Positions 10,994 through 63,292 of a DNA stretch of 64,000 nucleotides are shown here, in pieces; position 1 is the first letter of the stretch; each line of letters opens with the position of its first letter. The notes beneath the pieces are model-generated. The model did no database searches, had not been told where the DNA came from, and saw nothing but the letters and a program-made list of their open reading frames with translations. A program made the position numbers and the translations under genes. Source of the DNA: an uncultured virus (IMG/VR IMGVR_UViG_3300035093_000027). Its lineage: Duplodnaviria > Heunggongvirae > Uroviricota > Caudoviricetes. The stretch lies in IMG/VR virus record IMGVR_UViG_3300035093_000027; one strand, given 5' to 3'.

Positions 10994-11096
10994 GCGCGGG
11001 ACCCTACCAGCATCGGCGCGGATCGGTACAAGCGCCGAAAACAAGGCGATACGGCCCATTCGCGCATCAGGTCAGTCGCGCTCGAGCGAGCGTCAT

Positions 11097-12938: not shown

Positions 12939-12973
12939 GGTGTTGCTCCTTCAGTTCGTTCTCGAGTCGCGCG

Positions 12974-14800: not shown

Positions 14801-14811
14801 GCGCTATCTCC

Positions 14812-15747: not shown

Positions 15748-15750
15748 GGC

Positions 15751-44736: not shown

Positions 44737-46464
44737 TCAGCCCGTCGCGGAGGCGGGCGCCCGAGGCCGCGGCGGGACGCGCTTGCGCTCGGTGGCCGCG
44801 CGTCCGAGATCCATGAGGGCTCGGGTCTGATCGGGGCGGAGGATCTGCATGATGCCGGTCACGGTCGTGACGTCCTTGCGAAGCATCGTCTCGAGCCGAG
44901 TGGAGAGCGCCCGCGCGTTGCTCTCGGTCTGCGCGACGGTGATCTTCTCGAAGGTCTCCCACACGCCCTCGGGGAGCGCCCGCAGCAGTTCCTTGGACTG
45001 CTCTTCGTCGATGGTCTCGAGCAGAGCTCGGGCGCCATCACGCGTCGGTGACGGATTCGCGTAGGCCGGCTGTGCTCGCGGTGTCTCGGTCGCGTCCGTG
45101 TCGACGACGCGTCCTGCGAGGTTCTCGTCGGATTCGTCCTCGTCGTCCTCGTCCTCGTCCTCGTCGACCTCCGCTCGAGACTGGGCGGTCATCGTGTTCG
45201 CCATGTCCCTGAACATCTCGTACAGATCGGTGTTGCCGCGCTTCTTCTGGATGTTGGCCATGAATCCGAGCGCCATCGGGATCGCTTTGCCGGCGATGCC
45301 GCCCAAGAGGCCAGGCCACTGCGACGGTTCGACCTCGACGTTGCGCTCGGCGTTCGCGAGGCGTTCGTCGAACAGAGCTCGCTCGTAGCGCATGAGCGTC
45401 GACGCCATCGTCGCCTCCTGCTCCATGGAGTGGCGGAACGCCTTCCAACTGTGCGCGGCGATCTTCTGGTAGTTCTCGTGCTGCTCGCGGTTGAGCGACG
45501 TGATCTCGATGAGCTGTGCGCCGAGATCCGCGGCGAGACGCTGAGCGGTGTCCCGCTGCTCACGCGACTCGCTGATCATCATCGATGCCATCCGCCGCAT
45601 CTCGCGTGCTCCGCTCGTGAACTCGCGACGCATGAGTCGGCGATCGCGTCGTTGCTGACGAGCCTGGTCCGCCCAGATCCGGGCGACGTTGGCGGTCTGC
45701 CGCTCGATCACCTGCAGGACGAACATCGCGTTCATCTGCAGCGGCACGCCGCCGGACAGATCGGGTTGCAACCCCATGCTCTGCGCCTGCGCGACGACCG
45801 GATGGATCTGCACGGGCTGCTCGATGGGTCCCATCAGCGAGCGGTCGACGTACGCGTCAGCAGCGTCACGCGGCCTGGGCAGCGCGCGTGGACGCGGACG
45901 TGACGCGCGCTCGACCGGTTCGTCGTCATAGTCGGCCTCGGCCTCAGGGTCGTCGTTGTCGTCGTCCTCGCCCTCGTCCTCCGCCTCCTCCTCGTCGACG
46001 TCGCCATCATCGTCGTCCTCGTCGTCCTCTTCTAAGTCGTCCTCGTCGTCATCGCCATCGGACAGACGCGACGGATCGACGGTGAATCGCACCTGCTTCT
46101 CCTGCGACTTGCCGCCGTCCTCCACCCACTGAAGGTCGATCCGGAAGTTGACGAGGTGATCGCGATCGCGAGCGAACGACTCCGCGAACTCGTTGACGAG
46201 CGCAGCGATCGTGCGCGCCGACAACGACGGGCGACGATCATCACCGAGCGCGAACGATAGACGTTGGAAGGTCCCGACCTGATCACCCTTAGCGTCTCGG
46301 ACATTGCGCGCCACGACGGCGACGCGACGAAGCCCGACGTGGACGAGCTTCACTGCCCGCTCGAGATTCGCCGGCGGTTCTCGACGGTCGAGCGCCTCGA
46401 TCGGAGGGAGCTTCCGCGGCGGAGAGCACTTGACGTCGGCGTAGGGATCGGCCTTGGGTGGCAT
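44737..46464 (-). CDS. Large hypothetical protein with acidic tracts, coiled coil and amphipathic/TM helix
   Basis: 575 aa ORF with host-like codon pattern; TACGAT box 8 nt before ATG. Confidence 0.7.
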   Translation of the reverse strand: MPPKADPYADVKCSPPRKLPPIEALDRREPPANLERAVKLVHVGLRRVAVVARNVRDAKGDQVGTFQRLSFALGDDRRPSLSARTIAALVNEFAESFARDRDHLVNFRIDLQWVEDGGKSQEKQVRFTVDPSRLSDGDDDEDDLEEDDEDDDDGDVDEEEAEDEGEDDDNDDPEAEADYDDEPVERASRPRPRALPRPRDAADAYVDRSLMGPIEQPVQIHPVVAQAQSMGLQPDLSGGVPLQMNAMFVLQVIERQTANVARIWADQARQQRRDRRLMRREFTSGAREMRRMASMMISESREQRDTAQRLAADLGAQLIEITSLNREQHENYQKIAAHSWKAFRHSMEQEATMASTLMRYERALFDERLANAERNVEVEPSQWPGLLGGIAGKAIPMALGFMANIQKKRGNTDLYEMFRDMANTMTAQSRAEVDEDEDEDDEDESDENLAGRVVDTDATETPRAQPAYANPSPTRDGARALLETIDEEQSKELLRALPEGVWETFEKITVAQTESNARALSTRLETMLRKDVTTVTGIMQILRPDQTRALMDLGRAATERKRVPPRPRAPASATG

Positions 46465-46486
46465 CGAGTCGCATCGTAACGCCAAT

Positions 46487-46526: not shown

Positions 46527-46645
46527 GACGCCGCTCCTACACGCGCGCGAGGCCTTCTTTCGGACCCGCTTGACCGATGTCCACGATGCTGGTTGGGTCC
46601 CGGCGACATCGGCCGCCGCCGACCTTCACACGAGGATCCAAGACC

Positions 46646-47260
46646 ATGCCCAAGGCAATCGTCGCACGTCAGCGAGAGCAGAACCCCCGAGACGTCTACG
46701 ACGACGCTCACGACCTCGCCCGCACCAACCCCTCCGCGCTGGCGAAGAACGTCGCCAAGCTCGCCCGCCGCAAGAACCAGAGCGACGGCCAGGCTGACGC
46801 GATGGCCGCGGGAGCCCGCGAGTTGACCGGGGTGGCTGTCGGCACGCTTGCGACGCTCGGCGCCTCCATGATCGACGGCCGCGTCGAGGCGGATCGCGAC
46901 GCGATGCTCGCTGCGTGGATCGACGAGGGCAACGCTGCGTCCGAGGATTGCCCGGTGCCGTGGGAGCTCGAGGGCGTGAAGGATCCGGCGACGGCGTTCC
47001 TCGGCGTGCCGTGGCTCGCGTTGCCGCCGCTCGTCTTCGGTGGGCTCTACGGCCTGACGAAGATGATGCGGCCCAAGGTGGTCGGCGGTCGCAAGACCAT
47101 GCCGGGCTTCCTCGAGTCGATGATGTACTACAGCTCGCTGTTCACGCTCGCGTACGGCTTCGGCACGTACATCCGCGGACGGAGCTATTGCACTCGCGAG
47201 CGCGCGATCGGTCGGGGCGACGTCCAGATCTCGATCACGCCCAAGGCGGAGGCCGCCTAG
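46646..47260 (+). CDS. Putative virion membrane protein (NP motifs, about 3 hydrophobic helices)
   Basis: GAGGA RBS; EQNP, RTNP; first gene of right arm. Confidence 0.65.
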   Translation: MPKAIVARQREQNPRDVYDDAHDLARTNPSALAKNVAKLARRKNQSDGQADAMAAGARELTGVAVGTLATLGASMIDGRVEADRDAMLAAWIDEGNAASEDCPVPWELEGVKDPATAFLGVPWLALPPLVFGGLYGLTKMMRPKVVGGRKTMPGFLESMMYYSSLFTLAYGFGTYIRGRSYCTRERAIGRGDVQISITPKAEAA

Positions 47261-47407
47261 CGCGCACGGATTCCTAGCCCGGCGGAACGAGTCCCGCTCG
47301 ATCCCAACGCATTCCGCGGAGGGATCGTCAGCGGGGCAAAGGCCCGAGTCTTCACGACGAGGGAACCGCTCGATGAACCGGGGCCTGACCCAAAGAGGAG
47401 ACGACCC

Positions 47408-48157
47408 ATGTTCGGCAACTTCGGAAGAGGCAATGAGATCGCACTGGCGAAGCAGCGCATCGCGCAGCGTCGCCAGATCCCCGGTGGCGCGCACGCAGGC
47501 GCGATGGCCGGTGCTGCCCCGATGCAGCAGTACAACCAGCCGCAGTACCCGCAGCAGTACCAGGGCTACCCCCAGGTGCCGCAGGGCGCCCCGGACGGCT
47601 CGATGGCCGGCTGCGGCATCATGGACAACTGCGCGGGCCCGGTGGCCACGCCCTTCATGGGCATGCAGCAGCCCACGGGTCCGTGGATGCAGAACCAGGC
47701 CTTGCTCGGCCTTGTGGCGACGCCGGCGACCCTCGGGTCGTTCACGCTCAGCGTCACGTGCGGCAACAAGTTCTTCTACGGGTGCGGCGCGCGCTCGTTC
47801 AACAGCCCGCTGCAGCTCCTGGTGACCTCGATCATCAGCGGCTTCAACGGCTACGAGCGCACGTGCGGACCCGATGCGGGCTTCGATGTCGCGTTCTGGA
47901 ACACGGACGACTGCTACTGCCCCTTCGACTGGGGCTGCTTCAGCAATCTCGCTCCGCTCACGATCACGTTCGACCCGCTCGACACCCTCTCGGTGTTGCC
48001 GACGCTCGACATGATCATCGTCGGCAAGGCGGTCAACTTCTTCAACGACTGCTGGCCGATGTTCCCCGGGACGCCTCCCGGCTACGGCGGCGGCGTCGCT
48101 GGCGGCCCGCCGATGGTGGTCGGTCAGCCCACCGGTGGTGGCAGCTCGATCTTCTGA
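47408..48157 (+). CDS. Candidate single-jelly-roll major capsid protein
   Basis: Strong GAGGAG RBS, own terminator, about 115 aa all-beta core (LLGLV..FTLSVT..LLVTSII..LTITFD..LDMIIVGKAV) between low-complexity arms. Confidence 0.5.
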   Translation: MFGNFGRGNEIALAKQRIAQRRQIPGGAHAGAMAGAAPMQQYNQPQYPQQYQGYPQVPQGAPDGSMAGCGIMDNCAGPVATPFMGMQQPTGPWMQNQALLGLVATPATLGSFTLSVTCGNKFFYGCGARSFNSPLQLLVTSIISGFNGYERTCGPDAGFDVAFWNTDDCYCPFDWGCFSNLAPLTITFDPLDTLSVLPTLDMIIVGKAVNFFNDCWPMFPGTPPGYGGGVAGGPPMVVGQPTGGGSSIF

Positions 48158-48196
48158 TCGCGTTCGCTCGTCCATCAGATCGTTGAACGACGAGGG

Positions 48197-48236
48197 GGGC
48201 GAGGACGCGTCGAGCGCCCTCGCCCTTTCTTTTTTT
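48197..48236 (+). terminator. Rho-independent terminator
   Basis: GGGCGAGGaCGC-loop-GCGcCCTCGCCC followed by TTTCTTTTTTT. Confidence 0.8.
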
Positions 48237-48261
48237 CCGGCCTCCCACAGGAAGATCAGCG

Positions 48262-50193
48262 ATGTCACCGATTTCCAACCCCTCGAGCAACTTTGGTGGC
48301 GTCGCCGATCTCTTGCCCGCCGGTCGTCGAGCTCGCCGAGCCAGACGCCGAGCCGGCTACGGCATGGGCCTGAGTGCGGGCATGGTGGCGAACCCGATCC
48401 CCGCTGACGCGTTGCCGGTGACGAGCAATCTGGCGGTGCCGCCGGCAGGCGCATCGACGTTCGTGTACGCGCCCAACGGAGCGACGCCGGGAGCGGCCGC
48501 GTACCGGGTGAGCAACGGGCTGTCGACGCCGGTGACGATCACCGCGATCTTCAACGATCCGAGCGGCGTGTACGCGCGCGTCAACGCGAACGTCGCCGCC
48601 GCCTTCGGTCCGTCGCTGACGGGAGGATTCGGAGAAGTGCTCGCTCCGTTCTCGCAGGGCTCGAGCGTGCGCACGACGAGCGGCTCGCCGGTACGCTCGG
48701 CTAATCCACCGCCGAAGCCCGGCGGGTCGCCCGGGCCGCTCATGAACTACGTCGGCTCAGGCTGGGTGTGGCCCTTGGCCGACTTGTTCCCGACGGAAGG
48801 CGCGTTCGTCTACTACTTGAAGGCGCTCGGCTACGACGCCTCCGGACTGAACGTGCTCTCCGCGGAGAACATGGAGGCGGTGCGCAACTTCCAATCCGAT
48901 CATTATCCGACGCACATCGACGGACTGATCGGCCTCCAGACGATCTCGGCGCTGCACGGTCCCGTGGTGGAACTGCTGCAAGGCGGACTGCCGCGCTACG
49001 TGCCAAAGACGAGCGGCGCGAGTCGCCGCCGATCGAGCGGTGCCACCCGCAACCCGGCCGATCCATGGGACGCCAGCACGTGGGAGTGGCTGCCCGCGAC
49101 GTTCTTCGATGGTCCGCCGACTACGACGACGAGAAGGTGGATCAAGCTGGTCGCAGTGGACACGCCGTCGCCGACTCCTCCGTCTCTTCCTGGTCCGGGG
49201 AAGCCGCCATCGCCTTCGGGATGGTATGGACACGGCGGAGACTACGTCGCGAAGCTGATGAAGAACTTCGGAGCGACGCAGGAGGACGTCATCGCCGTGA
49301 TCCGCACGCGACCGCGTCCCGGAGGTGGCACCGAGATGCAAGCGGCCGTCGTCAGACACCTCCCCAGATCCAGCGGCGCCAGTCGTCGCCGATCGAGCGG
49401 CGCGTCGCGCAACGCGATGCGTGGAGGCGGAGGCAGTTTTGCCGGCGGCGGCGGACTTCGCCAGAGCAACCCCTGCGGCTGCACTGCAAAGGCCGAGAAC
49501 CCCGACGACTGCACGGTCGTGTACGAGAACGGGCAGGCGTTGCTGTGCTGCGGGCCGTCGGCGACGTGCGCGAGGCTGCCGATTCTGAGTCCCCAAGACG
49601 TCGATCTGCTGCTGGCCGAGCTCCCGATCGGGACGTATCGACCGCTCGCGCGTCTGTCACGACGAGCTCGCAAGGCCGTTGAGCGCGCGGCCGCGTATGC
49701 CCATGGCGCAGGCGACGTGCTGTCGGGCCGGCAGCGCAACCAGGTACACCACGGCAACAGCGGAACCGACTTCGGCACCGTCGCACGACGCTCGCAGTTG
49801 CTCGCCGAGTGCGCGGACGTCCTGTCGGGTCGCATGCAGAACCAGGCGCATCACGGCAAGACGGGACATGACTTCGGTACGGTCGAGCGTCGCCGCAGCA
49901 ACCCAGATGCTTCGGTGAACGCGTGCTTCATCGATCTCTCGGCGCTGCGCCTGCACTGCCCCGGATCTCCGCTGCACGGCGTCGTCGTCACGGACGTGGA
50001 AGAGATCGGCCAAACCGGATCCGGCGAGGGCACGGTCGTGATGGCCTCGTACATCGATCCGACGACCGGCGTCGAGACCATCGACGCAGTCGTCGTGATG
50101 GCCGACCAAGGCGTGCCGTGGTGGGAGAGCGACGGCCACTGCTGTGAGTCGTGCGCACTCGGCGAAGGCTGCACCGACTGCGAGGCCGCCTGA
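48262..50193 (+). CDS. Modular NP-punctuated protein with peptidoglycan-binding-like domain and internal repeats
   Basis: AVRNFQSD..IDGLIGLQT; SGASRRRSSGA.RN twice; DVLSGR..NQ.HHG..G.DFGTV twice; Cys-rich end. Confidence 0.65.
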   Translation: MSPISNPSSNFGGVADLLPAGRRARRARRRAGYGMGLSAGMVANPIPADALPVTSNLAVPPAGASTFVYAPNGATPGAAAYRVSNGLSTPVTITAIFNDPSGVYARVNANVAAAFGPSLTGGFGEVLAPFSQGSSVRTTSGSPVRSANPPPKPGGSPGPLMNYVGSGWVWPLADLFPTEGAFVYYLKALGYDASGLNVLSAENMEAVRNFQSDHYPTHIDGLIGLQTISALHGPVVELLQGGLPRYVPKTSGASRRRSSGATRNPADPWDASTWEWLPATFFDGPPTTTTRRWIKLVAVDTPSPTPPSLPGPGKPPSPSGWYGHGGDYVAKLMKNFGATQEDVIAVIRTRPRPGGGTEMQAAVVRHLPRSSGASRRRSSGASRNAMRGGGGSFAGGGGLRQSNPCGCTAKAENPDDCTVVYENGQALLCCGPSATCARLPILSPQDVDLLLAELPIGTYRPLARLSRRARKAVERAAAYAHGAGDVLSGRQRNQVHHGNSGTDFGTVARRSQLLAECADVLSGRMQNQAHHGKTGHDFGTVERRRSNPDASVNACFIDLSALRLHCPGSPLHGVVVTDVEEIGQTGSGEGTVVMASYIDPTTGVETIDAVVVMADQGVPWWESDGHCCESCALGEGCTDCEAA

Positions 50194-51065
50194 TGCTGAA
50201 CCATCCTCCGCTCCCGAGCGCGTTCGACATGGTGATCGTCGCGCCATCGGCGGATCCGTTCCTCCAGCGCTGGTTGCCGCCCGGTCCGCGACGCAACCAG
50301 CCGATCGTCGTGGGCTCGGGCTACTCGCAGGTCCGTGCCCTTCGCGCGATGACGATGCAAACCGGCTACTCCCTGCACTCGGGCGATCAGACCGAGAACC
50401 CGCAGCCGGTCGGAGTGTGGCATCACGTCTCGATCTCTGCGCTCGAAACGTTTCAGCCACCGGGTACCACGATCGACGGGTTGAACCTGGTGGGACTGCC
50501 GGACATCGGCAACCAATCCTCGCTGCTGAAGGCGCGGATCAAGCTCTCCATGGGCAACGCGCGCGCCCGGACCTTCGACTTCGACATCGGCGCAGGCGTT
50601 GAGTTCAAGGTGCGCGCGTACGCGGTGCTCGGCATCGATGCGCTCGTGCCCGACCCGGAAGGCGGCGGCGTTGCACCGGAAGACGTCAGCGCCAACCCTC
50701 GAGCGCTCGCGACGTTCGTGACCACGGCGGTGTACTGCAGCGCGAGCAACAGCACGGAGAAGAACCCGCTCACCTACTCGCAGGTCTTCCTACTCGCCGA
50801 CAACCAGGTGACGATGCCCGTCGTCGCCGGCGCCAGGCAGGTGCAGTTCTTCGCGACCGAGGACACGACGGTCGAGTTCTCGTACGTCTTCGAGAACCCC
50901 ATCGTCGCGTCCAGCGTCTACCCCACCGGACGCGTCATCATCTCGTCGGTGCTGGTCGAGTCCGGGATCCCAAGTCCGATCCTCTTCATCCCCGTCAACG
51001 TGAACGCGTTCACGGTGCCCAACGGATCCGGCCAGCTCAACATCGTCCAGATCCTGAACGCGTGA
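50193..51065 (+). CDS. Beta-rich putative structural protein
   Basis: TGATG coupling; alternating hydrophobic strands. Confidence 0.6.
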   Translation: MLNHPPLPSAFDMVIVAPSADPFLQRWLPPGPRRNQPIVVGSGYSQVRALRAMTMQTGYSLHSGDQTENPQPVGVWHHVSISALETFQPPGTTIDGLNLVGLPDIGNQSSLLKARIKLSMGNARARTFDFDIGAGVEFKVRAYAVLGIDALVPDPEGGGVAPEDVSANPRALATFVTTAVYCSASNSTEKNPLTYSQVFLLADNQVTMPVVAGARQVQFFATEDTTVEFSYVFENPIVASSVYPTGRVIISSVLVESGIPSPILFIPVNVNAFTVPNGSGQLNIVQILNA

Positions 51066-51072
51066 GGTACCC

Positions 51073-51597
51073 ATGGCGCGACACAGCATGAACAAGATGA
51101 ACCGCGCCCTGCTCGACCGAGCATCCGCGAATCCTGCAGCGATCGCCGAAGCTGCGATGGGGTCGGGCGTGCTCCCCGAGCACAACCCGGCACCGATCCA
51201 GAACCCTGGCCCGATCAACTACCCCGGCCTGCCGCCGAAGCCGACGACCCCCGGCAACATTTCAGCGAACCTGCTGTCGGCTGCGCAGCAGACGTGGCTG
51301 AAGCGCCGCGCGCTGTGGTTCGCGTCGGCGCTGCAGCAGATGACGGGCGACTCGATCGACGATCCCGACATCATCGATCGCACAGCCTACCTCGCTGCGG
51401 TGGCGCTGGTCGGCGACGACTACGATCCTCTCACGCAAGGCATTACGCCAGGGTGGACCGACGAGCAGTGGTCGGCGGCGTACAACTACGTCAAGACCTC
51501 GCTCGTGCAGTGGTGGCACACCGCCTACGACGCGACGCCCGCATCCAAGCACCAAGGACACATCGAGATCGACTCGATGAGCTACGGGGTGCGCTGA
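51073..51597 (+). CDS. Hypothetical protein, paralog of 51597-52001
   Basis: LSAAQQTWLKRRA..AYLAAVALVGDD vs LTTSDKAYLANRA..ASMAATGLLGDD. Confidence 0.65.
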   Translation: MARHSMNKMNRALLDRASANPAAIAEAAMGSGVLPEHNPAPIQNPGPINYPGLPPKPTTPGNISANLLSAAQQTWLKRRALWFASALQQMTGDSIDDPDIIDRTAYLAAVALVGDDYDPLTQGITPGWTDEQWSAAYNYVKTSLVQWWHTAYDATPASKHQGHIEIDSMSYGVR

Positions 51598-52001
51598 TGT
51601 ACAAGTCGATGTTCAAGATGGCGTCGCGCCACCCGATCCGCTACGCGCAACTCGCCGCGCTCGGGGCTGTCGCAACTCCGATGCCGACGACACCCGTCGC
51701 GCCGATGCGCTCGGAGGTGCCCAGCCCGCCGCGACGCTCGGGCGCCTACCGAGCGCTGACGACGAGCGACAAGGCGTACCTGGCCAACCGCGCCGAGCGC
51801 ATGCGCAACGTCTACTTCTTCTTCGCCGAGAGCAGCACGTCGCGGCTCAACCCCGATCAGATCGGCTTCATCGCATCGATGGCCGCGACCGGACTGCTCG
51901 GTGACGACGGCGACGCCGGCACGCGGCACGCTCGCAAGTTCGGGCAGGCGATCCAGTACGCGAGCGCCTGGCTGCGCGACCACCAGCTCGGACCGATCTG
52001 A
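51597..52001 (+). CDS. Hypothetical protein, paralog of 51073-51597
   Basis: Shared helical domain, TGATG coupling. Confidence 0.65.
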   Translation: MYKSMFKMASRHPIRYAQLAALGAVATPMPTTPVAPMRSEVPSPPRRSGAYRALTTSDKAYLANRAERMRNVYFFFAESSTSRLNPDQIGFIASMAATGLLGDDGDAGTRHARKFGQAIQYASAWLRDHQLGPI

Positions 52002-52664
52002 ATGCTGCTCACGCTCCACCTGTGCATGCCGTCGGGCGACGGATCGCGCGCGACCTACCAGGACGCGCTCGAGATCGTGCAGGCCGACAACCGCAGGGTG
52101 ATCCGAGCGATGCTCAACCGAGGCGACGACATCCCGGACACCGTCGCCGACTGGAACCTGGGGTACGCGCCCGAGCAGCGTCGCAACGACGCGTACGGCA
52201 ATCCGATGATGGACATCTACGGCATCGCCGCGTGCGTCGAGCGAGGGCTGTTCTCCTGTGGATGCGCCGCCGCGCTCGAGGCCGCGGTGCTTGAGGAGAA
52301 GTACGGCGTGCGCGCCCTCGCGACCTCCGTGCCGCAGGCCGACAACGACTTCCACGCCGTGGTGGTGTCCGAGCTCGGCGTGCACGACCCGGTCGCCAAC
52401 TTCCAGCGCGGCCTGCAGCACCACATCCCGTCGCGTCCCAAGCGACGCGTCAAGCCGCAGTCGTGCGACATCGGGCCGGACGGTCGCGTACACTGTGACG
52501 TGCCCGCGTCGTGCTACATCGACCAGCGCGGCAAGTGGCACTGTCCCGACGTTCCGGGGCTGACCGATCGACGCGAGAAGATCGCGAGCGTGCACCGCTC
52601 GCCAGGCGGACAGCAGTGGGCCCGCATGCAAAACGGCGCCGTGGCGCCGATGAGGCGCCGATGA
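52002..52664 (+). CDS. Transglutaminase-like Cys-His-Asp protein (candidate protease)
   Basis: GLFSCGCAAALEAA (Cys at helix start), FHAVV, VHDP. Confidence 0.5.
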   Translation: MLLTLHLCMPSGDGSRATYQDALEIVQADNRRVIRAMLNRGDDIPDTVADWNLGYAPEQRRNDAYGNPMMDIYGIAACVERGLFSCGCAAALEAAVLEEKYGVRALATSVPQADNDFHAVVVSELGVHDPVANFQRGLQHHIPSRPKRRVKPQSCDIGPDGRVHCDVPASCYIDQRGKWHCPDVPGLTDRREKIASVHRSPGGQQWARMQNGAVAPMRRR

Positions 52665-52711
52665 GCAACTCCATACACGCCGAGGGCGCGAAGCCCAAGA
52701 AGAGGTGAAGC

Positions 52712-53089
52712 ATGCATCCGTCGCTCTTTCCGTTCCTAAATCCGCAAGTGCAGCAACTGATGGTGCCGCGTGGCGCCGCACAGAGCTCGATGGGGGCGTT
52801 CGTGTGCGCTGAGCACACGGAGGACGGGTGCAGAGCATCGAAGTGGGTCAGCACGGGCACAGCCAGTCCTTGTGGACCTGACGGAGAAGTCTGCGGCTCA
52901 TCGTCGCCAGGTGATCCTCCAGTCTGCTGCTACACCGGATCGCCGCAAGTCGCGGCGTACCAAGCTCAACTGCAATCGCTGGCGTACCAAGCCCCGCAGC
53001 GCATGAGAACGAAGCGCCCCATCCTCCGTGCTCAACTCGCCGCGCAGAATCCTCCGGACCCGGAGATCCGCTCCACGAGAAGGCGCTGA
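52712..53089 (+). CDS. Cys-rich hypothetical protein
   Basis: GAGGTG RBS; ends QNPP..RRR. Confidence 0.45.
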   Translation: MHPSLFPFLNPQVQQLMVPRGAAQSSMGAFVCAEHTEDGCRASKWVSTGTASPCGPDGEVCGSSSPGDPPVCCYTGSPQVAAYQAQLQSLAYQAPQRMRTKRPILRAQLAAQNPPDPEIRSTRRR

Positions 53090-53105
53090 AGAAGGCGGCG
53101 ACAGG

Positions 53106-53594
53106 ATGAGCAAGCGACGACGCAACCAAGAAGAGGCGAAGAGCAACAAGGTCGCCTTCATCCTCGGCGCACTCGGAGCGGGCGCAGGTCTCGGCGTGGG
53201 CTACTGGATCGCGACGACCAAGTCTGCGCGCGACGCCGCCGACAAGCTCACGCAGGGATGGCGGATCCCGCAGCCCGACTTTCGCGTGCACGTCCCCGAG
53301 GAGCCGAACGACTTCCAGCGTCTCGACGACGAGATCTGCGACTGCGCCGAGCCGATCTTGGCCGAGGTGGCCGAGGACGCGGACTTCTCGGTCGTCATCG
53401 ACGAGATCCGGCTGTGCGTTGCGCGGCGTCTGTATCCCGACCTCGAGTGGCCGCCGGTGCCCGGCGATCACCCGAGCGTGGCCCAGCTCTGGAGCGAGGT
53501 CGGGTTCATGGTGCGCCGGGCCATCATCACCGACATGGTGTGCGACTCGCCGATCGCACCACCGCATCCGATTCCGATCCCTGAGGCGACATGA
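53106..53594 (+). CDS. Membrane-anchored protein with RRRN leader
   Basis: MSKRRRNQ..+TM. Confidence 0.7.
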   Translation: MSKRRRNQEEAKSNKVAFILGALGAGAGLGVGYWIATTKSARDAADKLTQGWRIPQPDFRVHVPEEPNDFQRLDDEICDCAEPILAEVAEDADFSVVIDEIRLCVARRLYPDLEWPPVPGDHPSVAQLWSEVGFMVRRAIITDMVCDSPIAPPHPIPIPEAT

Positions 53595-54481
53595 GACGAC
53601 GACCACTCCAGCGGAAGCCGAACCCGTCAGGCGCGACGTGGGCCGTGCTCGCGGCCGGCTCCGCTGCGGCCGTGGGTCTCGGCGCCTACGCGTGGAGGCG
53701 ACGCCGGCCCGGCACGATGCCGACCGAGCCGCCCAAGCCCGTCGAGCCCACCTCGACACCGCGCGAGTGGACGTGGCACCGCGCGACCGATCCGGGCTAC
53801 CCGTGGCTCGAGCCCACGCTGCACGTCGAGAACTATCCGACGCCCGGCATGTTCTTCGACGTCGGCGACGACACAGGCGCCTTCGATCCGAGCCAAGGCT
53901 TCGATGCGCTCGTCACTGCACTGCTTGGATCGGCCCTCGTAATGGCGGGCTGGGATCCGCAGCGTGCGATCGCGGTGGCGAAAGCACAGGGCCAGGATCC
54001 GGACGCGCTGCTCGGACGCACGATGCGACGCGACGTCCGACGCGCGCTCATCATGCCGGGCTCGTGGAACGACAAGATGTTCGGGCAGACCAACGCCAAC
54101 TACGCAGGCGGCACCGATCCGGGCAAGGCGTGCACGGGAGGCTCGACCAACGCGCCGTGCAACGACGGGATCCGCGATCCGAACGCGATGCCGGTGCGCT
54201 ACATGATGAACACCGCCGGCCGCGGCCTGAACTGGCTGCCGCGGCACACCGACGTCATGGATGCGATCGCTGCAGGACAGACGCCGGTACGAGGCACGAC
54301 GATCACCGGTGAGCCGTTCGCGGGGGCGCACTCGCACATGCTCCTGTGGATGCCGGCGTTCGACCTGGGGGCGCTGGCGGAGCCGAGCTCGACCGTGCGG
54401 GTGCTGTCGTCCGGCGGCGATCCGCCGCCCGTGGTGACCGATCTCGGCATCGACATGCACGGGGTCAGCCTGGCGGCGTAG
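53591..54481 (+). CDS. NP-motif membrane-anchored protein
   Basis: RKPNP + TM + RRRR. Confidence 0.7.
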   Translation: MRRRPLQRKPNPSGATWAVLAAGSAAAVGLGAYAWRRRRPGTMPTEPPKPVEPTSTPREWTWHRATDPGYPWLEPTLHVENYPTPGMFFDVGDDTGAFDPSQGFDALVTALLGSALVMAGWDPQRAIAVAKAQGQDPDALLGRTMRRDVRRALIMPGSWNDKMFGQTNANYAGGTDPGKACTGGSTNAPCNDGIRDPNAMPVRYMMNTAGRGLNWLPRHTDVMDAIAAGQTPVRGTTITGEPFAGAHSHMLLWMPAFDLGALAEPSSTVRVLSSGGDPPPVVTDLGIDMHGVSLAA

Positions 54482-54490
54482 GATCGGCCG

Positions 54491-54847
54491 ATGGCCGGTC
54501 CACTGATGCTCCTGGGATTTCGTCGTGACGACGACGGCATGTACACGATCGTCGATCCTACCGGCGTCGATCACATGGCCTGCGACGTCCTGAGCGTCGG
54601 TCGGATCGTCACCAAGCTCGTGCAGGATCCGGAGATGCCGCGGGCGAACCCCGAGGCCATCGAGCGCAACCCCGTCGTCGACGTCGCCGCACGCGTCGCT
54701 CGTCGGGTCGCGCCCGAGAAGTCCGCCCTGATGGACATGCTCGAGCCGCTGGCGCACCTCGTGACCAACGAGGTGTCGAAGAAAGTCGCGGCGCGACCCC
54801 GGCGCAACCCGGCAGGACGTCGCCGACGGGCGCAGAATCGCATGTGA
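54491..54847 (+). CDS. Small NP-motif protein
   Basis: RANP, ERNP, RPRRNPAGRRRR. Confidence 0.65.
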   Translation: MAGPLMLLGFRRDDDGMYTIVDPTGVDHMACDVLSVGRIVTKLVQDPEMPRANPEAIERNPVVDVAARVARRVAPEKSALMDMLEPLAHLVTNEVSKKVAARPRRNPAGRRRRAQNRM

Positions 54848-54923
54848 TGGGGGCGCGGGCGGCCCCGCGCGGGGCAAAGGTCGTAGCCCGCGAGCGCCGG
54901 GTGCTCCGGCCTCACCAGCGGAA

Positions 54924-55160
54924 TCAGACGTACACGCGGTAGATGCTCGCCACCGCCCGTGCACCGTCGTCGTTGAGGCTCGACTCCTCGTCGCGCCACA
55001 CAAGCACGCGGCCATCGTCGAGGTCGCCCTCGGTCGCGATCTCCTCGCCGTACACCGAGCGCAGAGACGCAAGCGCCGCGTCGAGGTCGGCGAACTTGTC
55101 GACTTGGCTGGTGTGCGAGTAGCGGACGCGGATCTCGGCGGCGGTCTTCGTCGTGGGCAT
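54924..55160 (-). CDS. Small hypothetical early protein
   Basis: AGGAG RBS; preceded by a variant of the repeated cassette. Confidence 0.7.
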   Translation of the reverse strand: MPTTKTAAEIRVRYSHTSQVDKFADLDAALASLRSVYGEEIATEGDLDDGRVLVWRDEESSLNDDGARAVASIYRVYV

Positions 55161-55169
55161 GATGTCTAC

Positions 55170-55229
55170 TCCTACGTGCGGAATGGTCCGGTCATTCGGC
55201 TCCGCATGCGCTCAACCGCATGCGGAGCT
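55170..55229 (-). promoter_or_regulatory. Variant copy of the operator/promoter cassette with inverted operator pair
   Basis: GCTCCGCATGCG-N6-CGCATGCGGAGC (55199-55228), then GAAT-N17-CGTA on the minus strand. Confidence 0.7.
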
Positions 55230-55385
55230 TCGCGGATCCTCGTTGGCCGACCTCGCATGCCAAGGCTGAGGCGATCCGCGACGACTCGACCACAGGCAGA
55301 ACCGGAGCATGTAGTTCGGCGCGCACGGAAGCGCGCACGGGGCCCGAAGGTGCGGAAGGACTCGGTAGCGGATCGTCATCGGTTG

Positions 55386-55724
55386 TCACCGCTCGATGTC
55401 CATCGGACGCAGCGGCGCAGTGCGTCCTGTCGCGCGTGTCATCGCATTGTGGAAGATGTTGCGTAGTGCGCCGTGAATCTCGTTGAACGTCTCGTTGTCG
55501 ATCCGACCACGCCATCGCGCGGTGAAGTCTTCGATCCGGTGCCGCCACAACAGCGTGAGCACTTCAGCGGCGCAGCGGTGGTCCTTCATCCGCGTCGCGA
55601 CGCCCATGAGGTCGTGATGGATCCGCTCGAACTGCTGCCGCAGGCGTCTGTCGCTGCGCATGACCTCGACCGACGCTGGTCGGGTCTGCAACTCGGGGAT
55701 CGACACTGCCCACTGATCGCTCAC
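55386..55724 (-). CDS. Hypothetical protein
   Basis: ORF downstream of Doc. Confidence 0.5.
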   Translation of the reverse strand: MSDQWAVSIPELQTRPASVEVMRSDRRLRQQFERIHHDLMGVATRMKDHRCAAEVLTLLWRHRIEDFTARWRGRIDNETFNEIHGALRNIFHNAMTRATGRTAPLRPMDIER

Positions 55725-55734
55725 GTGGCCCCAC

Positions 55735-56148
55735 CTACTCGATCTCGTTCCACTCGCCCATCGCGGCGGCGAAGCGTTTGCTCAACACGTCATGGCTCGT
55801 CAGCCCCTGCGCAACGTCGACCATGACATCTTGGAAACCGACGAAGTTATCCAGCATGTCATCGTACCCGTTCAGCGTCAGGAACGTGAGCGCTATGCCA
55901 AGCCCGGTACGCTTGTTGCCATCGACGAAAGCATGAGACGTGGAGATGTAGAAGGCGTAAGCAGCAGCGATCTCAGCAAGCGAACCCAGGAGAAGCTCTC
56001 CATCCCAAGTTGCTTCGACCGCCATCATCGAACCCTCGAGCGCGTTTGGACGAGCGAGGCCATGGGCGCCTCCATACCGTTCGATGGCCTCGTCATGGAC
56101 GACGATCGCTTCAGCGATCGACAGAAATCGGATGTCTTCCTCTCTCAT
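55735..56148 (-). CDS. doc: Death-on-curing (Doc/Fic) family toxin
   Basis: HAFVDGNKRT; H...I..YGG..G.R. Confidence 0.92.
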   Translation of the reverse strand: MREEDIRFLSIAEAIVVHDEAIERYGGAHGLARPNALEGSMMAVEATWDGELLLGSLAEIAAAYAFYISTSHAFVDGNKRTGLGIALTFLTLNGYDDMLDNFVGFQDVMVDVAQGLTSHDVLSKRFAAAMGEWNEIE

Positions 56149-56375
56149 CGATCGGCGAGATCGCGGAAGGTGGAGTCATGCACACGGAAGACCTCGGCAA
56201 GGGCTCTCCGAAAGTCCCGATCCCGTGTGCGCTCGGCAGGCGAACGCACGGCTACTCCGGATGCGAGTTGCTCGAGTTCGACGCTCTTGCCGATCTGCCA
56301 TCCGAGGCTGTTGGCGATCGCCGCGGGGATCATGACCGCGCGTCCGTTGCCGTGCTTGACGATCTTGGCCTTCAT
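56145..56375 (-). CDS. AbrB/MazE-type antitoxin
   Basis: MKAKIVKHGNGRAVMIP; ATGA-coupled to Doc. Confidence 0.88.
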   Translation of the reverse strand: MKAKIVKHGNGRAVMIPAAIANSLGWQIGKSVELEQLASGVAVRSPAERTRDRDFRRALAEVFRVHDSTFRDLADR

Positions 56376-56402
56376 GGTCGACCATGGTCTACCACGGTCG
56401 AC
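56373..56402. promoter_or_regulatory. TA operator: three 10-bp repeats overlapping the antitoxin start
   Basis: CATGGTCGAC CATGGTCTAC CACGGTCGAC, includes perfect palindrome CATGGTCGACCATG. Confidence 0.7.
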
Positions 56403-56581
56403 GCAGAGGATCAACTGCATCGGTACTCGTTGTTGTGGACGACGTAGCGCAAGCGCGGACTGAAAATGGTCTCGCCGTGCGCTCAGAAGACTCGTGATCG
56501 CCTCGAATCCGAGGATCCTCGCGTGTTCGGGCGGACTCGTGACAAACGCGCCGTTTGCTGGTGGGTTCGGGCGCAGCGCCC

Positions 56582-57142
56582 ATGACCCAAGACACCAACC
56601 GCCCACGCCCGCACGTCGTGCCCGATGATCCGCCGCGGAACGAGCGGAAGGCCAAGAACCCGAACTCTGAGACGTGGCGCACCGTCAAGACCGTCGCCCT
56701 GACGACCCTCGTCAGCGCGGCCGTTCTCGGCTCGGCATCATGGGTGTGGAATACGGCGACTCGCCGCGCCACACGAGCGGCGCGTCGTCGGCAGCAGCTC
56801 GAGCAGATCGAGAGCCCATACGCGCAGGCACCCGTCTACGCCGCGGCCGCGCAGCAAGGCTACGGCTGGCCGCAGACCAACATGCGCGACGTCCCCGAGG
56901 CGCTGCGCGACGGTCCGCGGCTGACCAACACGATGCCGCAGGCTGCTCCGCCGCCACAGGTGGTCGTTGCGCCCCCGAGCCCCGAGATCATCGCCGAGAT
57001 CCGCCGACTTGGGCAGCACGTCGACAAGCGCTTCTCGAACGTCGAGCGGCGCTTCGACGCGCTCGAGAACCCCGAGCTCGACGACGACGAGATTGAGGAC
57101 GAGGACGACGACGAGGAGGATGCGCCCCGCAGGCGCAACTGA
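56582..57142 (+). CDS. NP-motif membrane protein with acidic tail
   Basis: RKAKNP + TM; coiled coil; D/E tail. Confidence 0.7.
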   Translation: MTQDTNRPRPHVVPDDPPRNERKAKNPNSETWRTVKTVALTTLVSAAVLGSASWVWNTATRRATRAARRRQQLEQIESPYAQAPVYAAAAQQGYGWPQTNMRDVPEALRDGPRLTNTMPQAAPPPQVVVAPPSPEIIAEIRRLGQHVDKRFSNVERRFDALENPELDDDEIEDEDDDEEDAPRRRN

Positions 57143-57145
57143 TCG

Positions 57146-57916
57146 ATGCTGTCCAAGCGCCAACGCAACGCGATCGCTCGCCAAGCGAACCGAGCTGGGA
57201 AGCTCGGGATCTACGACCCGCAGCTTCCGTCGCCGCGATCGCTGGACGACGATGCGCGCAAGGTCTACGACAAGGCCTACGAAGAGGCGCGCAAGCAGTA
57301 CAACGACGACGAGACCGCGACCGCGACTGCGTGGCGCACGGTCCGTCTGGGGTGGCGCAAGCAGGGCAAGCGGACGTGGCAGCGATGCGCGAACGGATCG
57401 TGCGGCTGGCCCACCGCGATGGTTCTGCCGCAGCCCGGCGATCTCGTAGGACTCGGCGTGCTCGTCGAGTACGCGTTCGTCGACAAGCATGGCGAGCTTC
57501 AAGTTCGCCGCTTCGAGGGCGACGAGCCCACGCTGTACTGGGACGAGAAGAACAAGGCGATGTACGCCTTCCCGCACGCGCCGTATCAGGCGTGCTCGCT
57601 CGGCGCCAAGCCGACTTCGAACGCGCTCGACACCTACGAGCGCTGGCACCAACGGCAATCGTCGTGCTTCGACGAGATCGATATCCCAGCGGTGACGCTG
57701 CAGCCGATGGGTCCGTCGGACACGGTGAGCTACCGCAGCGACAAGTGGCACGACAAGAACATCGATCCTCGTGTCCGAGGCGCGCAGGAGTACATCCACC
57801 ACCACTACACGGACGTGTGGACGTACCAGGACACCGACGATCTCAAGCGAGCGCCCAACGCGATCTTCGTGACGGGCGGACACCTCGACCTCCACGAGCG
57901 CGGACTCATCCACTGA
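57146..57916 (+). CDS. ChaB-like domain fused to a beta-rich C-terminal domain
   Basis: ARKVYDKAYEEARKQYNDDETATATAWRTVR..RKQG..W fits the ChaB pattern. Confidence 0.65.
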   Translation: MLSKRQRNAIARQANRAGKLGIYDPQLPSPRSLDDDARKVYDKAYEEARKQYNDDETATATAWRTVRLGWRKQGKRTWQRCANGSCGWPTAMVLPQPGDLVGLGVLVEYAFVDKHGELQVRRFEGDEPTLYWDEKNKAMYAFPHAPYQACSLGAKPTSNALDTYERWHQRQSSCFDEIDIPAVTLQPMGPSDTVSYRSDKWHDKNIDPRVRGAQEYIHHHYTDVWTYQDTDDLKRAPNAIFVTGGHLDLHERGLIH

Positions 57917-57923
57917 GGACACC

Positions 57924-59538
57924 ATGAAGACGAACAAGATCGCCAAGAACTCCACCGGCGGACTCGCCAAGAACCCGCGCCGTCGCAACGGCTCGCTTGC
58001 GCGCGTGATCACGGGATACGACAAGGCCTTCATGGTCATGGTGGGGGGTGCGCTCGCTGGCGCCGCCCTCGGCTACTTCGTCAAGCCGACGACGACGACC
58101 AAGACCGCGTCGAAGCGAGCTCAAGACGGCTTCGCGATCGGAGGCCTGGCTGTCGGCATTCCCGCGCTGGTCTACGCCGCGGTGAAGTCGTGAAGCACTC
58201 TTCGATCACCCGCCGGCGCAACCCCAGCGCGCTGGCGATCGCTCGGACCGATCCGCTCGGCCGCATCGCGGTGCCCATGATGGCGATCGCGTTGGGTTCG
58301 GCTGCGGGGATCCTCGCGGCCAAGCCGCTGGGGAAAACACCGATGACGGGCGGCCTCGTCGGTGCAGCAGCAGGACTGGCCGCATTTCTGCTGGTCGATC
58401 AAGTCGACCAGCGCCGCTAGGAGAACCCATGCCTCGAGCAGCCGCCATCCAAGGTCCCGTCCACCGTCCGCAGCGCAACCCCAACCCGGCGCCTCCCACG
58501 GTACGCGACGAAGCGGAGAAGAACCCGCGTCGGCGTCGCAAAGGCAAGGGCAAGCGCCGCCGCAACCCGAAGAACCCGAAGATCTCGTACACCACGGGCG
58601 CGATCATCGGGGCGGTACTGGGCTCGATCGGCGTGGCGATCTCGAGCGCTGCGAAGGCGCCGATGCCGGTGATCTCCACGGATGCGGGCGAGTTCGCGGT
58701 CGACACGACCTCGACGACGAAGCGCGCGCTCATGGGAGCGCTGCGAGGCGCGGCCGTCGGCCTCGCGGTGGGCGTCGGCGCGACGATCGTCGCGCGCGAG
58801 CTCAAGGTCGGCGCGGCGGGGCGGATGATGAACCCGACGGGCGTCGGCTCGGCCATCGTGCTCGGATCCTCCATCGCCGCGACCACCCTCGCGGTCGACC
58901 ACGGCATGACGAAGGCATTCGAGGCTGCATGAAGGCGCTGTCCAAGCGCCGACCCAACCTGTCGGCCGTCGCCACCACGACGTACGTCGGCACCGCCGCG
59001 CTCGTCGGCGCGCTGTCGAGCGCGCTCAGCTACACGGTGACCCACAACAAGCGCAGCGCGATCGCCTCGGGCGTCGCCGGCGTCGCCGTGGGCCTCGTGC
59101 TGGTCGCCTCGATGAGGCACCTATGAAACGCCGATCGAAGAAGCGCCGCCGCAACCCGGCGCGCCACACCAACCCGAGCGGTCTCATCACGACGCTGATC
59201 TGCGGAGCCGCAGCCGTCACCGGCATCACGCTGGTGTCGGTGGCGATGCAGTCGCGTCGCAACGCGGCCATCTCGATGTGCGGTCGCCTCGGCGGCCTTC
59301 CGGAGGGCGCATGAAACGACGCAATCCCGGCGCGCTGGCCACGTTCGCGTGGGCCTCGGCTTCAGCGGCGGTCGGCGGCCTCGCGGCCTACTTCACACTG
59401 CGCGAGGTGTACGCTGCGCAGGTCGTCGAGCGGTGCGACGTCATCCGCACGTCGAAGCAGCAGATGTCGATCCAGACCGGCATGCCCACTGCCATGCTGC
59501 CGGCTGTCACCAAGTCGCGCGCGCGCGCCTGGTTCTGA
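57924..59538 (+). CDS. Six small basic-leader membrane proteins (57924-58193, 58190-58420, 58429-58932, 58929-59126, 59123-59314, 59311-59538)
   Basis: KNPRRRN, RRRNP, KRRRNPKNP, KRRPN, KRRRNP, KRRNP, each followed by Gly/Ala-rich TM helices. Confidence 0.75.
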
Positions 59539-59554
59539 CCGAGGAGTCCGTCGA

Positions 59555-60274
59555 ATGGAACGCTCGAGCAACCCCCGTCGTCGTCGTGGTCGCAAGTCCC
59601 GGCGGCGCAACCCATGGGATCGTGATGCCGCGGTCGCGCTCGGCGTCGTCGGAGGGGTGCTCGGGATCGCATCCGCCTTCGCGGCGGCCTCCACTGATCG
59701 CGTGTGGACCCGTGCGGTCGTCGCTGGGGCGACAGGCGGCGCCGCGGGTGCGGTGCTCGGTGCTCTGCTGCCCAAGGGCAAGTCGAGCAACCCGCTGCAG
59801 AACCCGATCGGCACCGCAACGGCGGTCATCGCCGGCACAGCGCTCGCGCTCGTGCCCGTGGCGGTCGCGGCCAAGGTGATGCTGCCGAAGTCCGCCGGAC
59901 GCAGTGCGGCGCCGACAGTGCGCGGCAAGATGGGCGCGCACGCCATCGACGTCTACCGCAACGGTCCGACGTGGGCATGGCGGGCGCCGGACGTGAAGAT
60001 CTCGAGCACGAGCAACGAGAGCATGGCAGGCGCTGGCGACACGCGTCGCGACGCCATCGTCAACGCCTACTCCGATCTCGTGATCAAGGATCTCGGACCC
60101 GACGATCGGATCACGCTCGACTTCTATCCCGAATCGTTCCAGATCCAGGTGCTCTCGAGCAACGGATCGTGGACGTGGAACACGACGACTGGGGAAGGCG
60201 GAGTCGCGGACAGCCGCGGCGACGCGCTCACCAAAGCCCTCGACTGGGTCGACGCGCACAGCGAGCTCGACTGA
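59555..60274 (+). CDS. NP-motif multi-TM protein with C-terminal duplicated domain
   Basis: NPRRRRGRKSRRRNPW; W.W...DTRRDA and W.W...DSRGDA repeats. Confidence 0.7.
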   Translation: MERSSNPRRRRGRKSRRRNPWDRDAAVALGVVGGVLGIASAFAAASTDRVWTRAVVAGATGGAAGAVLGALLPKGKSSNPLQNPIGTATAVIAGTALALVPVAVAAKVMLPKSAGRSAAPTVRGKMGAHAIDVYRNGPTWAWRAPDVKISSTSNESMAGAGDTRRDAIVNAYSDLVIKDLGPDDRITLDFYPESFQIQVLSSNGSWTWNTTTGEGGVADSRGDALTKALDWVDAHSELD

Positions 60275-60288
60275 AGGAGAACACCACC

Positions 60289-61155
60289 ATGACCAAGCAA
60301 CGACTCGCGCTCGCCGGCACGCGCAACCATCCGGCTCCCAATCCCGCTCCCGCTTCCAAGGGCCCCGCGCCCGAGGACAACCCGCGTCGCCGTCGACGCA
60401 AGGGCGGCGGCAAGCGTCGTCGCAAGGCGCGTCGCAACCCCGTGTCGGTCGCCGGCACGCTGGTCGCGGTGGGCCTCGGCGCCGCAGCGGTCGCCGGCGG
60501 CTACGTGGCGTATCGCGGATGGCAGCGAGTCCGCGGCCAGATGAAGATGACGCCCGGTGGCGAGATCGCCGGACTGCTGTCGAAGGGCGCGACCCTGGCC
60601 GACTCGCCGCAGATCGTGTCCGACGTGCGCATGCCCGTCCAGCTCGCGGTGAGCTCGGCCGCGATCCCGAGTGGCTACACGGGCGCGCCGACGCTGCGCG
60701 TGCTGCTGCAGAACGAGGACGGCACGTACACCGCCCGTGACGTCGCGAACGTCGCCTTCGGATTGACGTCAGGCGGCGCCACGGATGCGGTCGTGCTGTC
60801 CGGTCGCATGCCCGACGGATCGACCTTCGAGCAGCGCAACGAGTTGCCCGGCGGCGTCAGCGAGCCCGCGGTCGCGCGCCTGGTCACCGACGTCAAGGGC
60901 ACACTGGCCCGCGACCTCTACGAGCGCATGCTCGCGGAGATCGTGACCAAGAAGGTCGACTGGGAGGATCCGGCGGCTCGCGACGCGTCGATCAAGCACG
61001 TGCTCGGGATCGTCGTACCGCAGGTCGACTACAGCCGCGGCCTCGAGCCGTACTCGTTCGGCGATCTGCCGAGCTCGGTGTGGAGCGCCGCGCAGCTCAT
61101 GGGCGCGCTCGCGCAGCAGTCCATGCTGAACAAGGCGCTGCAGGGCGGCGGCTGA
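60289..61155 (+). CDS. NP-motif membrane-anchored protein
   Basis: AAGGAG RBS; PAPEDNPRRRRRKGGGKRRRKARRNP + TM. Confidence 0.75.
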   Translation: MTKQRLALAGTRNHPAPNPAPASKGPAPEDNPRRRRRKGGGKRRRKARRNPVSVAGTLVAVGLGAAAVAGGYVAYRGWQRVRGQMKMTPGGEIAGLLSKGATLADSPQIVSDVRMPVQLAVSSAAIPSGYTGAPTLRVLLQNEDGTYTARDVANVAFGLTSGGATDAVVLSGRMPDGSTFEQRNELPGGVSEPAVARLVTDVKGTLARDLYERMLAEIVTKKVDWEDPAARDASIKHVLGIVVPQVDYSRGLEPYSFGDLPSSVWSAAQLMGALAQQSMLNKALQGGG

Positions 61156-61156
61156 C

Positions 61157-61552
61157 GTGAGCGAGGACGGCGACACCCTTCTGGCCCGCGCGTTCGCTGC
61201 AGGTGCAGCGAACGTGTCGGTGATGAAGATCGGCGACGACTACGTCGCGACGATCTCGGCGTGGCGCACGATCGATGATCATAGCGGCGTGAGCCACAGC
61301 GAGCACGCGAGCAGCCGCGGCGAAGGCTCGACGCCGGACTTCGCGATGCGCGAGGCGATCGCGAAGCTGCAGCCGACGCCGGCGATCGAGGTTCGCGAGA
61401 TCAAGCGCAACCGTGCGCTCGGCGAAGCTCGCGATGTCGTGCCCGCCGCGCTCGCCGACCGCGTCACACGGATCAAGGGATTGCTACCGCCGCCGGTCGA
61501 GCCGGCGGCCATCGACGCGGTCGAGCGCGTCGCCGACGAGACGGGGAGCTGA
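61157..61552 (+). CDS. Hypothetical protein
   Basis: ORF in operon. Confidence 0.55.
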   Translation: MSEDGDTLLARAFAAGAANVSVMKIGDDYVATISAWRTIDDHSGVSHSEHASSRGEGSTPDFAMREAIAKLQPTPAIEVREIKRNRALGEARDVVPAALADRVTRIKGLLPPPVEPAAIDAVERVADETGS

Positions 61553-61557
61553 GCGGC

Positions 61558-63291: not shown

Positions 63292-63292
63292 C

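Follow-up and report, generated by a model that had tools for sequence, protein, structure and literature searches.

What is encoded at positions 47408-48157 of a large uncultured viral genome fragment, a gene with conspicuous expression signals whose product resembles no named protein? The fragment (IMG/VR record IMGVR_UViG_3300035093_000027, assigned to the Caudoviricetes) was analyzed as a stretch of 64,000 nucleotides, referred to here as the window; the contig carrying the gene is 130,310 bp long, of which about 66 kb lies outside the 64-kb window. The original prediction, made from the sequence alone, was a single-jelly-roll capsid protein of an unusually large, tailless relative of the sphaerolipoviruses. 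Our analysis favors a broader answer, with a probability of roughly 0.6: the gene probably specifies a structural subunit that is abundant in the particles of a large (~130-170 kb), high-GC, uncultivated lineage of bacterial viruses from peat, soil, and groundwater. This reading accounts best for the data because the expression signals are conserved, the codon usage is biased, the protein itself is highly conserved, the gene lies in a conserved block, and a sandwich fold is predicted.

The gene is located on the plus strand and encodes a 249-residue protein consisting of an N-terminal helix, a Q/P/G linker, a Cys-rich all-beta core, and a G/P tail. In a gene list of the window based on the GC content of third codon positions (GC3), its value of 0.92 is the highest among open reading frames (ORFs) of at least 150 amino acids; the GC content of the window is 62-70% per 2 kb. 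The 5' leader (47261-47407, plus strand) includes the predicted strong ribosome-binding site, GAGGAG at 47395-47400, 7 nt ahead of the ATG, and a similar purine-rich site is found upstream of the orthologues in related loci. The leader was also said to be structured, and it is, although little more so than shuffled sequences: its minimum free energy is -61.6 kcal/mol against -54.2 +/- 4.1 for the shuffles (z -1.8), and among 200 shuffles 6 reach an equally stable fold, placing the structure only modestly above chance. Behind the gene, RNA folding recovered the predicted intrinsic terminator (48197-48236, plus strand), a bulged GC stem-loop at 48197-48225 followed by a U-run; the stem reads GGGGCGAGG.CGC / GCG.CCUCGCCC, and UUUCUUUUUUU continues to 48236. 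A generic terminator scan of 44-56 kb missed this site because its stem is bulged, and returned three other sites against 5.0 expected. A GC hairpin with a T-run follows the orthologue in all eight loci having downstream sequence while the stem sequences differ, so the signal is selected rather than a chance match, and this conservation backs the terminator far more strongly than the single site in the window does. As the position is kept across relatives of 46-80% protein identity, the product would be made in excess over the products of the downstream genes. Such a layout, with a strong ribosome-binding site and a closing terminator, would be expected of a gene for a major particle protein that has genes for minor ones behind it.

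A word-indexed search resulted in 31 homologues of the Cys-rich protein, all unnamed and encoded on contigs of up to 168,729 bp; 24 of these were aligned (alignment A1). An exhaustive profile search placed 59 representative clusters, again all unnamed, in the family at E <= 0.001. The protein contains nine Cys residues, and those invariant in the 24 aligned homologues are C69, C118, C126, C153, C169, C171, C177, and C215. The N-terminal helix (residues 10-20) is conserved along with a VPxGAxxGxxAGCG motif, the linker and tail are both variable, and the core (residues ~90-215, about 125 amino acids) includes the blocks CGNxFFxGCGARSF and GCFSNLAPLxITFDPxDT. An AlphaFold2 model built on A1, poor overall, places seven strands between residues 94 and 210, with the core blocks scoring 60-75. 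The description of an all-beta core with many Cys and flanking Q/P/G-rich arms therefore held, the arms being visible in both sequence and alignment. No signal peptide or hydrophobic stretch was found at the N-terminus. The protein has no sequence match in Pfam, PHROG, NCBIfam, or the Protein Data Bank (PDB), the 57 family relatives scanned have none in Pfam or PHROG, and profile searches of the PDB with A1 and with a second alignment of the family (A3) returned nothing under E 0.78. Neither sequence nor profile connects it with a known capsid family. More distant family members do not carry the cysteines. Two relatives, P0062 (347 amino acids) and P0064 (328 amino acids), each contain two full tandem copies of the core, which counts in favor of a particle protein. 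A 1446-residue sequence (P0096) consists of five identical 293-residue units, each a weak match to the core, and is probably artefactual, produced when a small sequence that is repeated or circular was assembled. Locus L017 encodes two Cys-less paralogues of the core (220-777 and 6299-6937), which have helical N-termini and adjoin DNA methylase-like genes.

Nine metagenome loci were recovered, and their gene order was compared by tblastn with the window proteins. Loci L002, L004, L007, and L009 share the order of an acidic protein on the minus strand, a membrane protein, the Cys-rich protein, a large ORF, a two-sandwich protein, the products of 52002-52664 and of the genes starting at 53028 and 53591, a ChaB-domain protein, and small membrane proteins. 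The same order is kept in L016, a 9.8-kb contig whose Cys-rich protein is ~29% identical over 95 aligned residues. The block opens with the membrane protein and then the Cys-rich protein, whose gene is among the most conserved of the block: identity to L002 is 79% for the Cys-rich protein, 82% for the ChaB protein (the highest in the block), 77% for the 52002 protein, and 58-70% for most neighbors.

The gene at 50193-51065 (plus strand; 290 amino acids, with the start used by database cluster P0032) is syntenic as well, and its product, which has 25 homologues, had been proposed as a second capsid or penton protein. Its AlphaFold2 model (predicted local distance difference test, pLDDT, 84; predicted template modeling score 0.83) contains about 16 strands (~8+8), and the chain is confidently predicted to fold into two jelly-roll-like sandwiches. 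The N-domain (residues 6-184) and C-domain (residues 190-290) each match sandwich folds; the matches of the latter are PirA (score 7.7-7.8), XepA (7.2), STIV A223 (7.1), and PR772 P31 (6.5), together with nucleoplasmin and picornavirus VPs. A Foldseek search with the whole model returned double-barrel proteins, namely vicilins, capsid proteins of STIV, phiCjT23, and PRD1, and cowpea mosaic virus, all with a template modeling score of at most 0.29; the E-values of the entries 2bbd, 7zzz, and 1hx6 were 3e-4, 1.7e-3, and 3.4e-3. The matches in BFVD were mixed, comprising picornavirus polyproteins, one capsid protein of a tectivirus, and minor tail proteins of Arthrobacter. The protein thus resembles major capsid proteins of the double-jelly-roll kind (PRD1 P3, STIV B345, phiCjT23) in having two eight-stranded sandwiches per chain, a likeness also seen in the Cys-rich relatives with two tandem cores, and its C-domain resembles the vertex and turret jelly rolls of the PRD1/STIV type (STIV A223 and C381; PRD1/PR772 P31) through the matches to A223 and PR772 P31. 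No convincing double-jelly-roll capsid match emerged from the fold searches, and none of the Pfam families, XepA (PF27453) included, was matched. The two beta-sandwiches agree with what had been proposed for this protein, but its gene is not adjacent to 47408-48157 and the two products are not detectably related (hhalign of A3 against the two-sandwich alignment A2, probability 0.3). A complex prediction for residues 85-225 of the Cys-rich protein and the two-sandwich protein scored 0.01 against a mark of 0.32, a result that counts neither way. In the ESM Atlas, unnamed phage clusters scored 0.81-0.83, beneath the trusted level of the tool.

The divergently transcribed gene at 44737-46485 (minus strand), syntenic in L002, L004, L006-L009, and L016, encodes an acidic helical protein of 582 amino acids with long D/E runs, possibly a scaffold. 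The conserved 227-residue membrane protein at 46577-47260 (plus strand), recognizable by its hydrophobic segments, is syntenic in L001-L009 and L016; in L016 an additional ORF at 7565-8056 (minus strand) with a GLVDGDGSF motif, which we take to be LAGLIDADG homing-endonuclease-like, is inserted between the acidic and membrane protein genes. The slot between the Cys-rich and two-sandwich genes is occupied in five of six loci by a large ORF (643 amino acids in the window, 461 in L002, 470 in L007, 815 in L009, and 867 in L016), and in L004 by a short stretch only. The window representative (48262-50193, plus strand) is hypervariable, contains 14 Cys residues, and shows a weak PG_binding_1 match (E 0.0037) below the Pfam cut-off; it resembles its L002 counterpart in three separate stretches only, and no similarity was detected to those of L007 and L009, the other two loci compared. 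This behavior fits a host-recognition protein. Two internal repeats, SGASRRRSSGA[TS]RN and VLSGRxxNQxHHGxxGxDFGTVxRR, occur twice each in the same ORF. The 220-residue product of 52002-52664 (plus strand), syntenic down to L016, contains an invariant SCG-Cys86, His118, and Asp129 (alignment A7), which have the look of a catalytic triad and suggest a putative papain/NlpC-like Cys protease or transglutaminase; it has no Pfam, NCBIfam, or PDB sequence match. Two membrane-anchored proteins of 188 and 296 amino acids follow (53028-54481, plus strand; syntenic in L002, L004, L007, L009, and L016), and then the ChaB-domain protein (57146-57916, plus strand; Pfam ChaB, 7.8e-8; alignment A6). A 40%-identical relative of the ChaB protein is encoded on a contig binned with a metagenome-assembled genome labeled Gemmatimonadales (bin G001), and this bin holds four matches to the Cys-rich family, one of which is L016.

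Membrane proteins are indeed abundant, as originally claimed: many ORFs within 53-64 kb carry hydrophobic helices, and the block of the Cys-rich gene encodes at least ten basic membrane-anchored proteins, among them a cluster of small proteins (57924-60274, plus strand) whose N-terminus is polybasic ("[RK]NP") and leads into transmembrane helices. This motif (RRRNP, KKNP, RRNP), mostly directly before a transmembrane helix, occurs in more than 20 ORFs, which lie in 9759-17915 (minus strand) and 46577-64000 (plus strand), with none across 18687-44721, the region of the replication genes; it is frequent in L010 as well. It defines two non-replication blocks, which are taken to be particle or envelope genes, and this division counts in favor of a particle protein; the motif may serve as a signal for cleavage, for sorting, or for the binding of DNA. 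Paralogous genes at 9759-10361 and 10304-11059 (both minus strand) encode a basic-NP N-terminus, one transmembrane helix, and a common C-terminal domain that is peptidoglycan-binding-like by eye, one of the two also having a 17-Gly run. An ORF cut by the end of the window (63598-64000, plus strand) contains an HEVGH motif (HExxH), zinc-protease-like by eye, and has no family match.

If the Cys-rich protein is an abundant particle subunit, its ~125-residue core would be a jelly-roll-type sandwich building a lattice or vertex, and the eight invariant Cys residues of the subfamily would provide disulfide locks, or metal binding, once outside the cell. The N-terminal helix and VPxGAxxGxxAGCG motif, on a flexible Q/P/G arm, would tie the sandwich to an underlying layer, which could be membrane, a neighboring subunit, or DNA, and the hypervariable neighbor 48262-50193 would be the host-recognition part. 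Two forms of this reading can be distinguished, which we hold about equally and each at well under even odds. In one, the protein would be an abundant accessory part (decoration, cement, tube, or fiber) of a tailed phage that is very divergent and has its head genes outside the window; in the other, it would be the shell or vertex protein of a non-HK97 particle, tailless and membrane-containing.

Several observations weigh against an abundant particle subunit of either form. The proposed structure prediction and Foldseek comparison of 47408-48157 placed strands, but the AlphaFold2 model reaches a pLDDT of only 49.8 (below 50 for residues 145-173), that of the ESM Atlas only 0.30, and a Foldseek search of the PDB was empty at E <= 0.001. 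It is unusual for a protein put together in a reducing cytoplasm to have eight conserved Cys residues, and the Cys-rich protein itself does not carry the [RK]NP motif. The L017 paralogues are located outside any structural block, so the core domain is not confined to particle genes. Finally, no RNA sequencing run containing the sequence is listed, the only run being of DNA from a peat metagenome that is probably its source.

In all, 71 ORFs of the window were scanned against Pfam and 62 against PHROGs. Among the matches were DUF5131, DUF4326, a primase, a Gp3-like protein, and three helicases, one of superfamily 2 (SF2), one Dda-like, and one with DUF927. The replication block contains two genes for C5 cytosine DNA methylases (26948-28237 and 34079-35296, both plus strand). 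A lysis-like set at 6.1-8.5 kb comprises an alpha/beta hydrolase (6111-7112) and SLT and M23 enzymes with N-terminal anchors; these two peptidoglycan hydrolases (7137-7898 and 7814-8497, both minus strand) overlap as listed and have near-alike Gly/Ala-rich anchors. Genes of the phage type (primase, helicases, Gp3-like, DUF5131, C5 methylases, SLT/M23) indicate a viral setting and count in favor of a particle protein. Two paralogous 610-residue fiber-like proteins (11097-12938 and 12974-14800, both minus strand; Pfam Gly_rich_2, 4.5e-10 and 2.8e-10) match the PHROG families "minor tail protein" and "tail fiber assembly", and their genes are surrounded by those of membrane-anchored proteins, not by recognizable tail genes. 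Each comprises an N-domain, a heptad LQADVAALQ coiled coil, VKxNPTAxxxDPQD repeats, and a Gly-rich C-domain ending in IYI[EQ]xW. A search with the N-terminus returned one coiled-coil protein, and a Rhodobacter phage match to the repeats is an unannotated gene among replication genes. Scans for tRNAs and Rfam families gave no match in the window.

At the reported cut-off, none of the scanned ORFs was recognized as a terminase, portal, HK97 capsid, tail tube, tail sheath, tape measure, or FtsK/HerA ATPase gene. The statement that HK97 capsid, portal, terminase, and tail genes are unrecognizable in the window was accordingly borne out for the first three, and has to be amended for tail genes, given the fiber-like proteins. 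The sole "terminase" row was a weak match of the SF2 helicase (20499-22229) to phrog_2, "terminase large subunit" (E 5e-4), and three helicases account for all canonical Walker A motifs of the well-biased ORFs. The flanks of the Cys-rich gene in five relatives, taken to 10 kb, likewise yielded no packaging or head gene, be it for a terminase, a portal, an HK97 capsid, or an FtsK/HerA ATPase; those of their ORFs that lack a homologue in the window encode UvrD-like helicases, a sulfotransferase, an HD protein, DUF3560, and DUF6908, and a weak SLT match falls below the Pfam cut-off. In bin G001, three Terminase_6N matches are located on an ordinary prophage contig and two short contigs, none with a window homologue, and a Pox_A32 search gave no match. 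FtsK/DUF87 matches were found there on five contigs, C733 (with an 845-residue FtsK-like frame), C28, C723, C434, and C414, the last three of which were compared with the window and showed no homologue except one marginal match (E 5e-4); none of these terminase, FtsK, or DUF87 matches was tied to the element. A collection of viral contigs contained no relative in any of five scans (A1, A2, A4, A5, and A6), a collection of species genomes contained none of A1, and tblastn searches returned nothing for three proteins in phages and nothing for one protein in 72,556 plasmids.

The narrower case put forward originally, in which 47408-48157 is a jelly-roll capsid protein and 50193-51065 a second capsid or penton protein of a tailless virus, is in our judgment possible but rather unlikely. 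It can draw on the basic membrane anchors, at least ten, that stand beside the sandwich proteins and on structural neighbors that are viral jelly rolls, yet the structural scores are weak and no sequence link leads to any known member. Terminase, portal, and HK97 capsid genes were not found in the 64 kb or the five related loci, but about 66 kb, half of the 130-kb contig, lies beyond the window, and the fiber genes match families of tailed phages. Double-core relatives exist and no relative appeared in the five scans of viral contigs, whereas a 1.9-kb gene intervenes between the two candidate capsid genes, whose profiles are not similar. In sphaerolipoviruses, an adjacent pair of related capsid genes stands beside the gene of an FtsK/HerA-type packaging ATPase. 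In contrast, the candidates here are separated by 48262-50193, the contig is 130 kb long, and no FtsK/HerA neighbor is present, the P-loop proteins in well-biased ORFs being the three helicases. No sequence or profile similarity was detected to the single-jelly-roll proteins of that group (P23-77 VP16/VP17; VP4/VP7 of SH1, HHIV-2, and HCIV-1), and to our knowledge a Cys-rich core with long low-complexity arms is not a feature of sphaerolipovirus capsid proteins; membership in the group was not upheld. All tailless bacterial viruses known to us have far smaller genomes, those of 130-172 kb being about five to ten times larger, and this prior also speaks against a tailless particle. Tailless prophages of less than 16 kb have been described (PMC11630473), and jelly-roll viruses are treated in reviews and surveys (PMC5894146, PMC8328091, PMC8812541), one of which states that their capsid proteins contain either one jelly roll or two and that packaging ATPases are mostly common to them (PMC8328091). 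Among the titles and abstract openings returned by a literature search, none refers to a tailless bacterial virus above 100 kb.

Two further readings take the protein out of the particle. It may be an abundant phage-encoded protein acting at the host envelope, such as a XepA/YomS-like lysis helper, a surface or superinfection-exclusion protein, or a Cys-rich lectin or toxin that is released, an explanation we consider improbable. The eight invariant Cys residues would suit an oxidizing, extracytoplasmic site, but the N-terminus has neither signal peptide nor hydrophobic stretch. Proteins that bind or cut peptidoglycan are numerous in and around the block, and the Cys-less paralogues occur outside the block; set against this, synteny is tight with genes at ~30% identity, which is typical of morphogenesis modules. 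The likeness to XepA and YomS, two-sandwich proteins of Bacillus PBSX and SPbeta lysis cassettes, is at the level of fold and concerns the C-domain of 50193-51065 only, the XepA family of Pfam is unmatched, and the gene belongs to a conserved block at a distance of 40 kb from the lysis-like enzymes. A non-viral plasmid or mobile element whose block builds a cell-surface structure, for instance a pilus or an appendage made from jelly-roll subunits with disulfide links like those of Ena fibers, is very improbable. It would explain why no viral hallmark gene was found and why the family is absent from the viral-contig collection. However, the 71 scanned ORFs include no relaxase, type IV secretion ATPase, or partition gene and many genes of the phage type (DUF5131, Gp3-like, Dda-like helicase, PHROG matches), plasmids gave no match, and the Cys-rich family (A3) was found in one of 401 genomes of the phylum of the Gemmatimonadales bin, which is more in keeping with a lytic virus than with a resident element.

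An abundant particle protein of a large virus hence remains the preferred reading, and even in its ordinary form it describes a virus lineage that is widespread in soil, peat, and groundwater. The conserved particle block as a whole (~15 genes) matches no curated family, so searches for viruses by marker genes miss the lineage, and predicting its structures and analyzing its virions by proteomics would be well worthwhile. A bolder possibility, which we regard as unlikely, is that the 130-172-kb contigs are large bacterial viruses lacking HK97 capsid, portal, and terminase, with jelly-roll particles around or under a membrane studded with basic [RK]NP anchor proteins. If the particles were tailless and built of jelly rolls, large double-stranded DNA viruses of bacteria would no longer be exclusively tailed, and the size gap between the bacterial PRD1-like viruses and the giant eukaryotic jelly-roll viruses would narrow. 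The Cys-rich single-core proteins and their fused two-core relatives, P0062 and P0064, would then display the step from single to double jelly roll within one living family.
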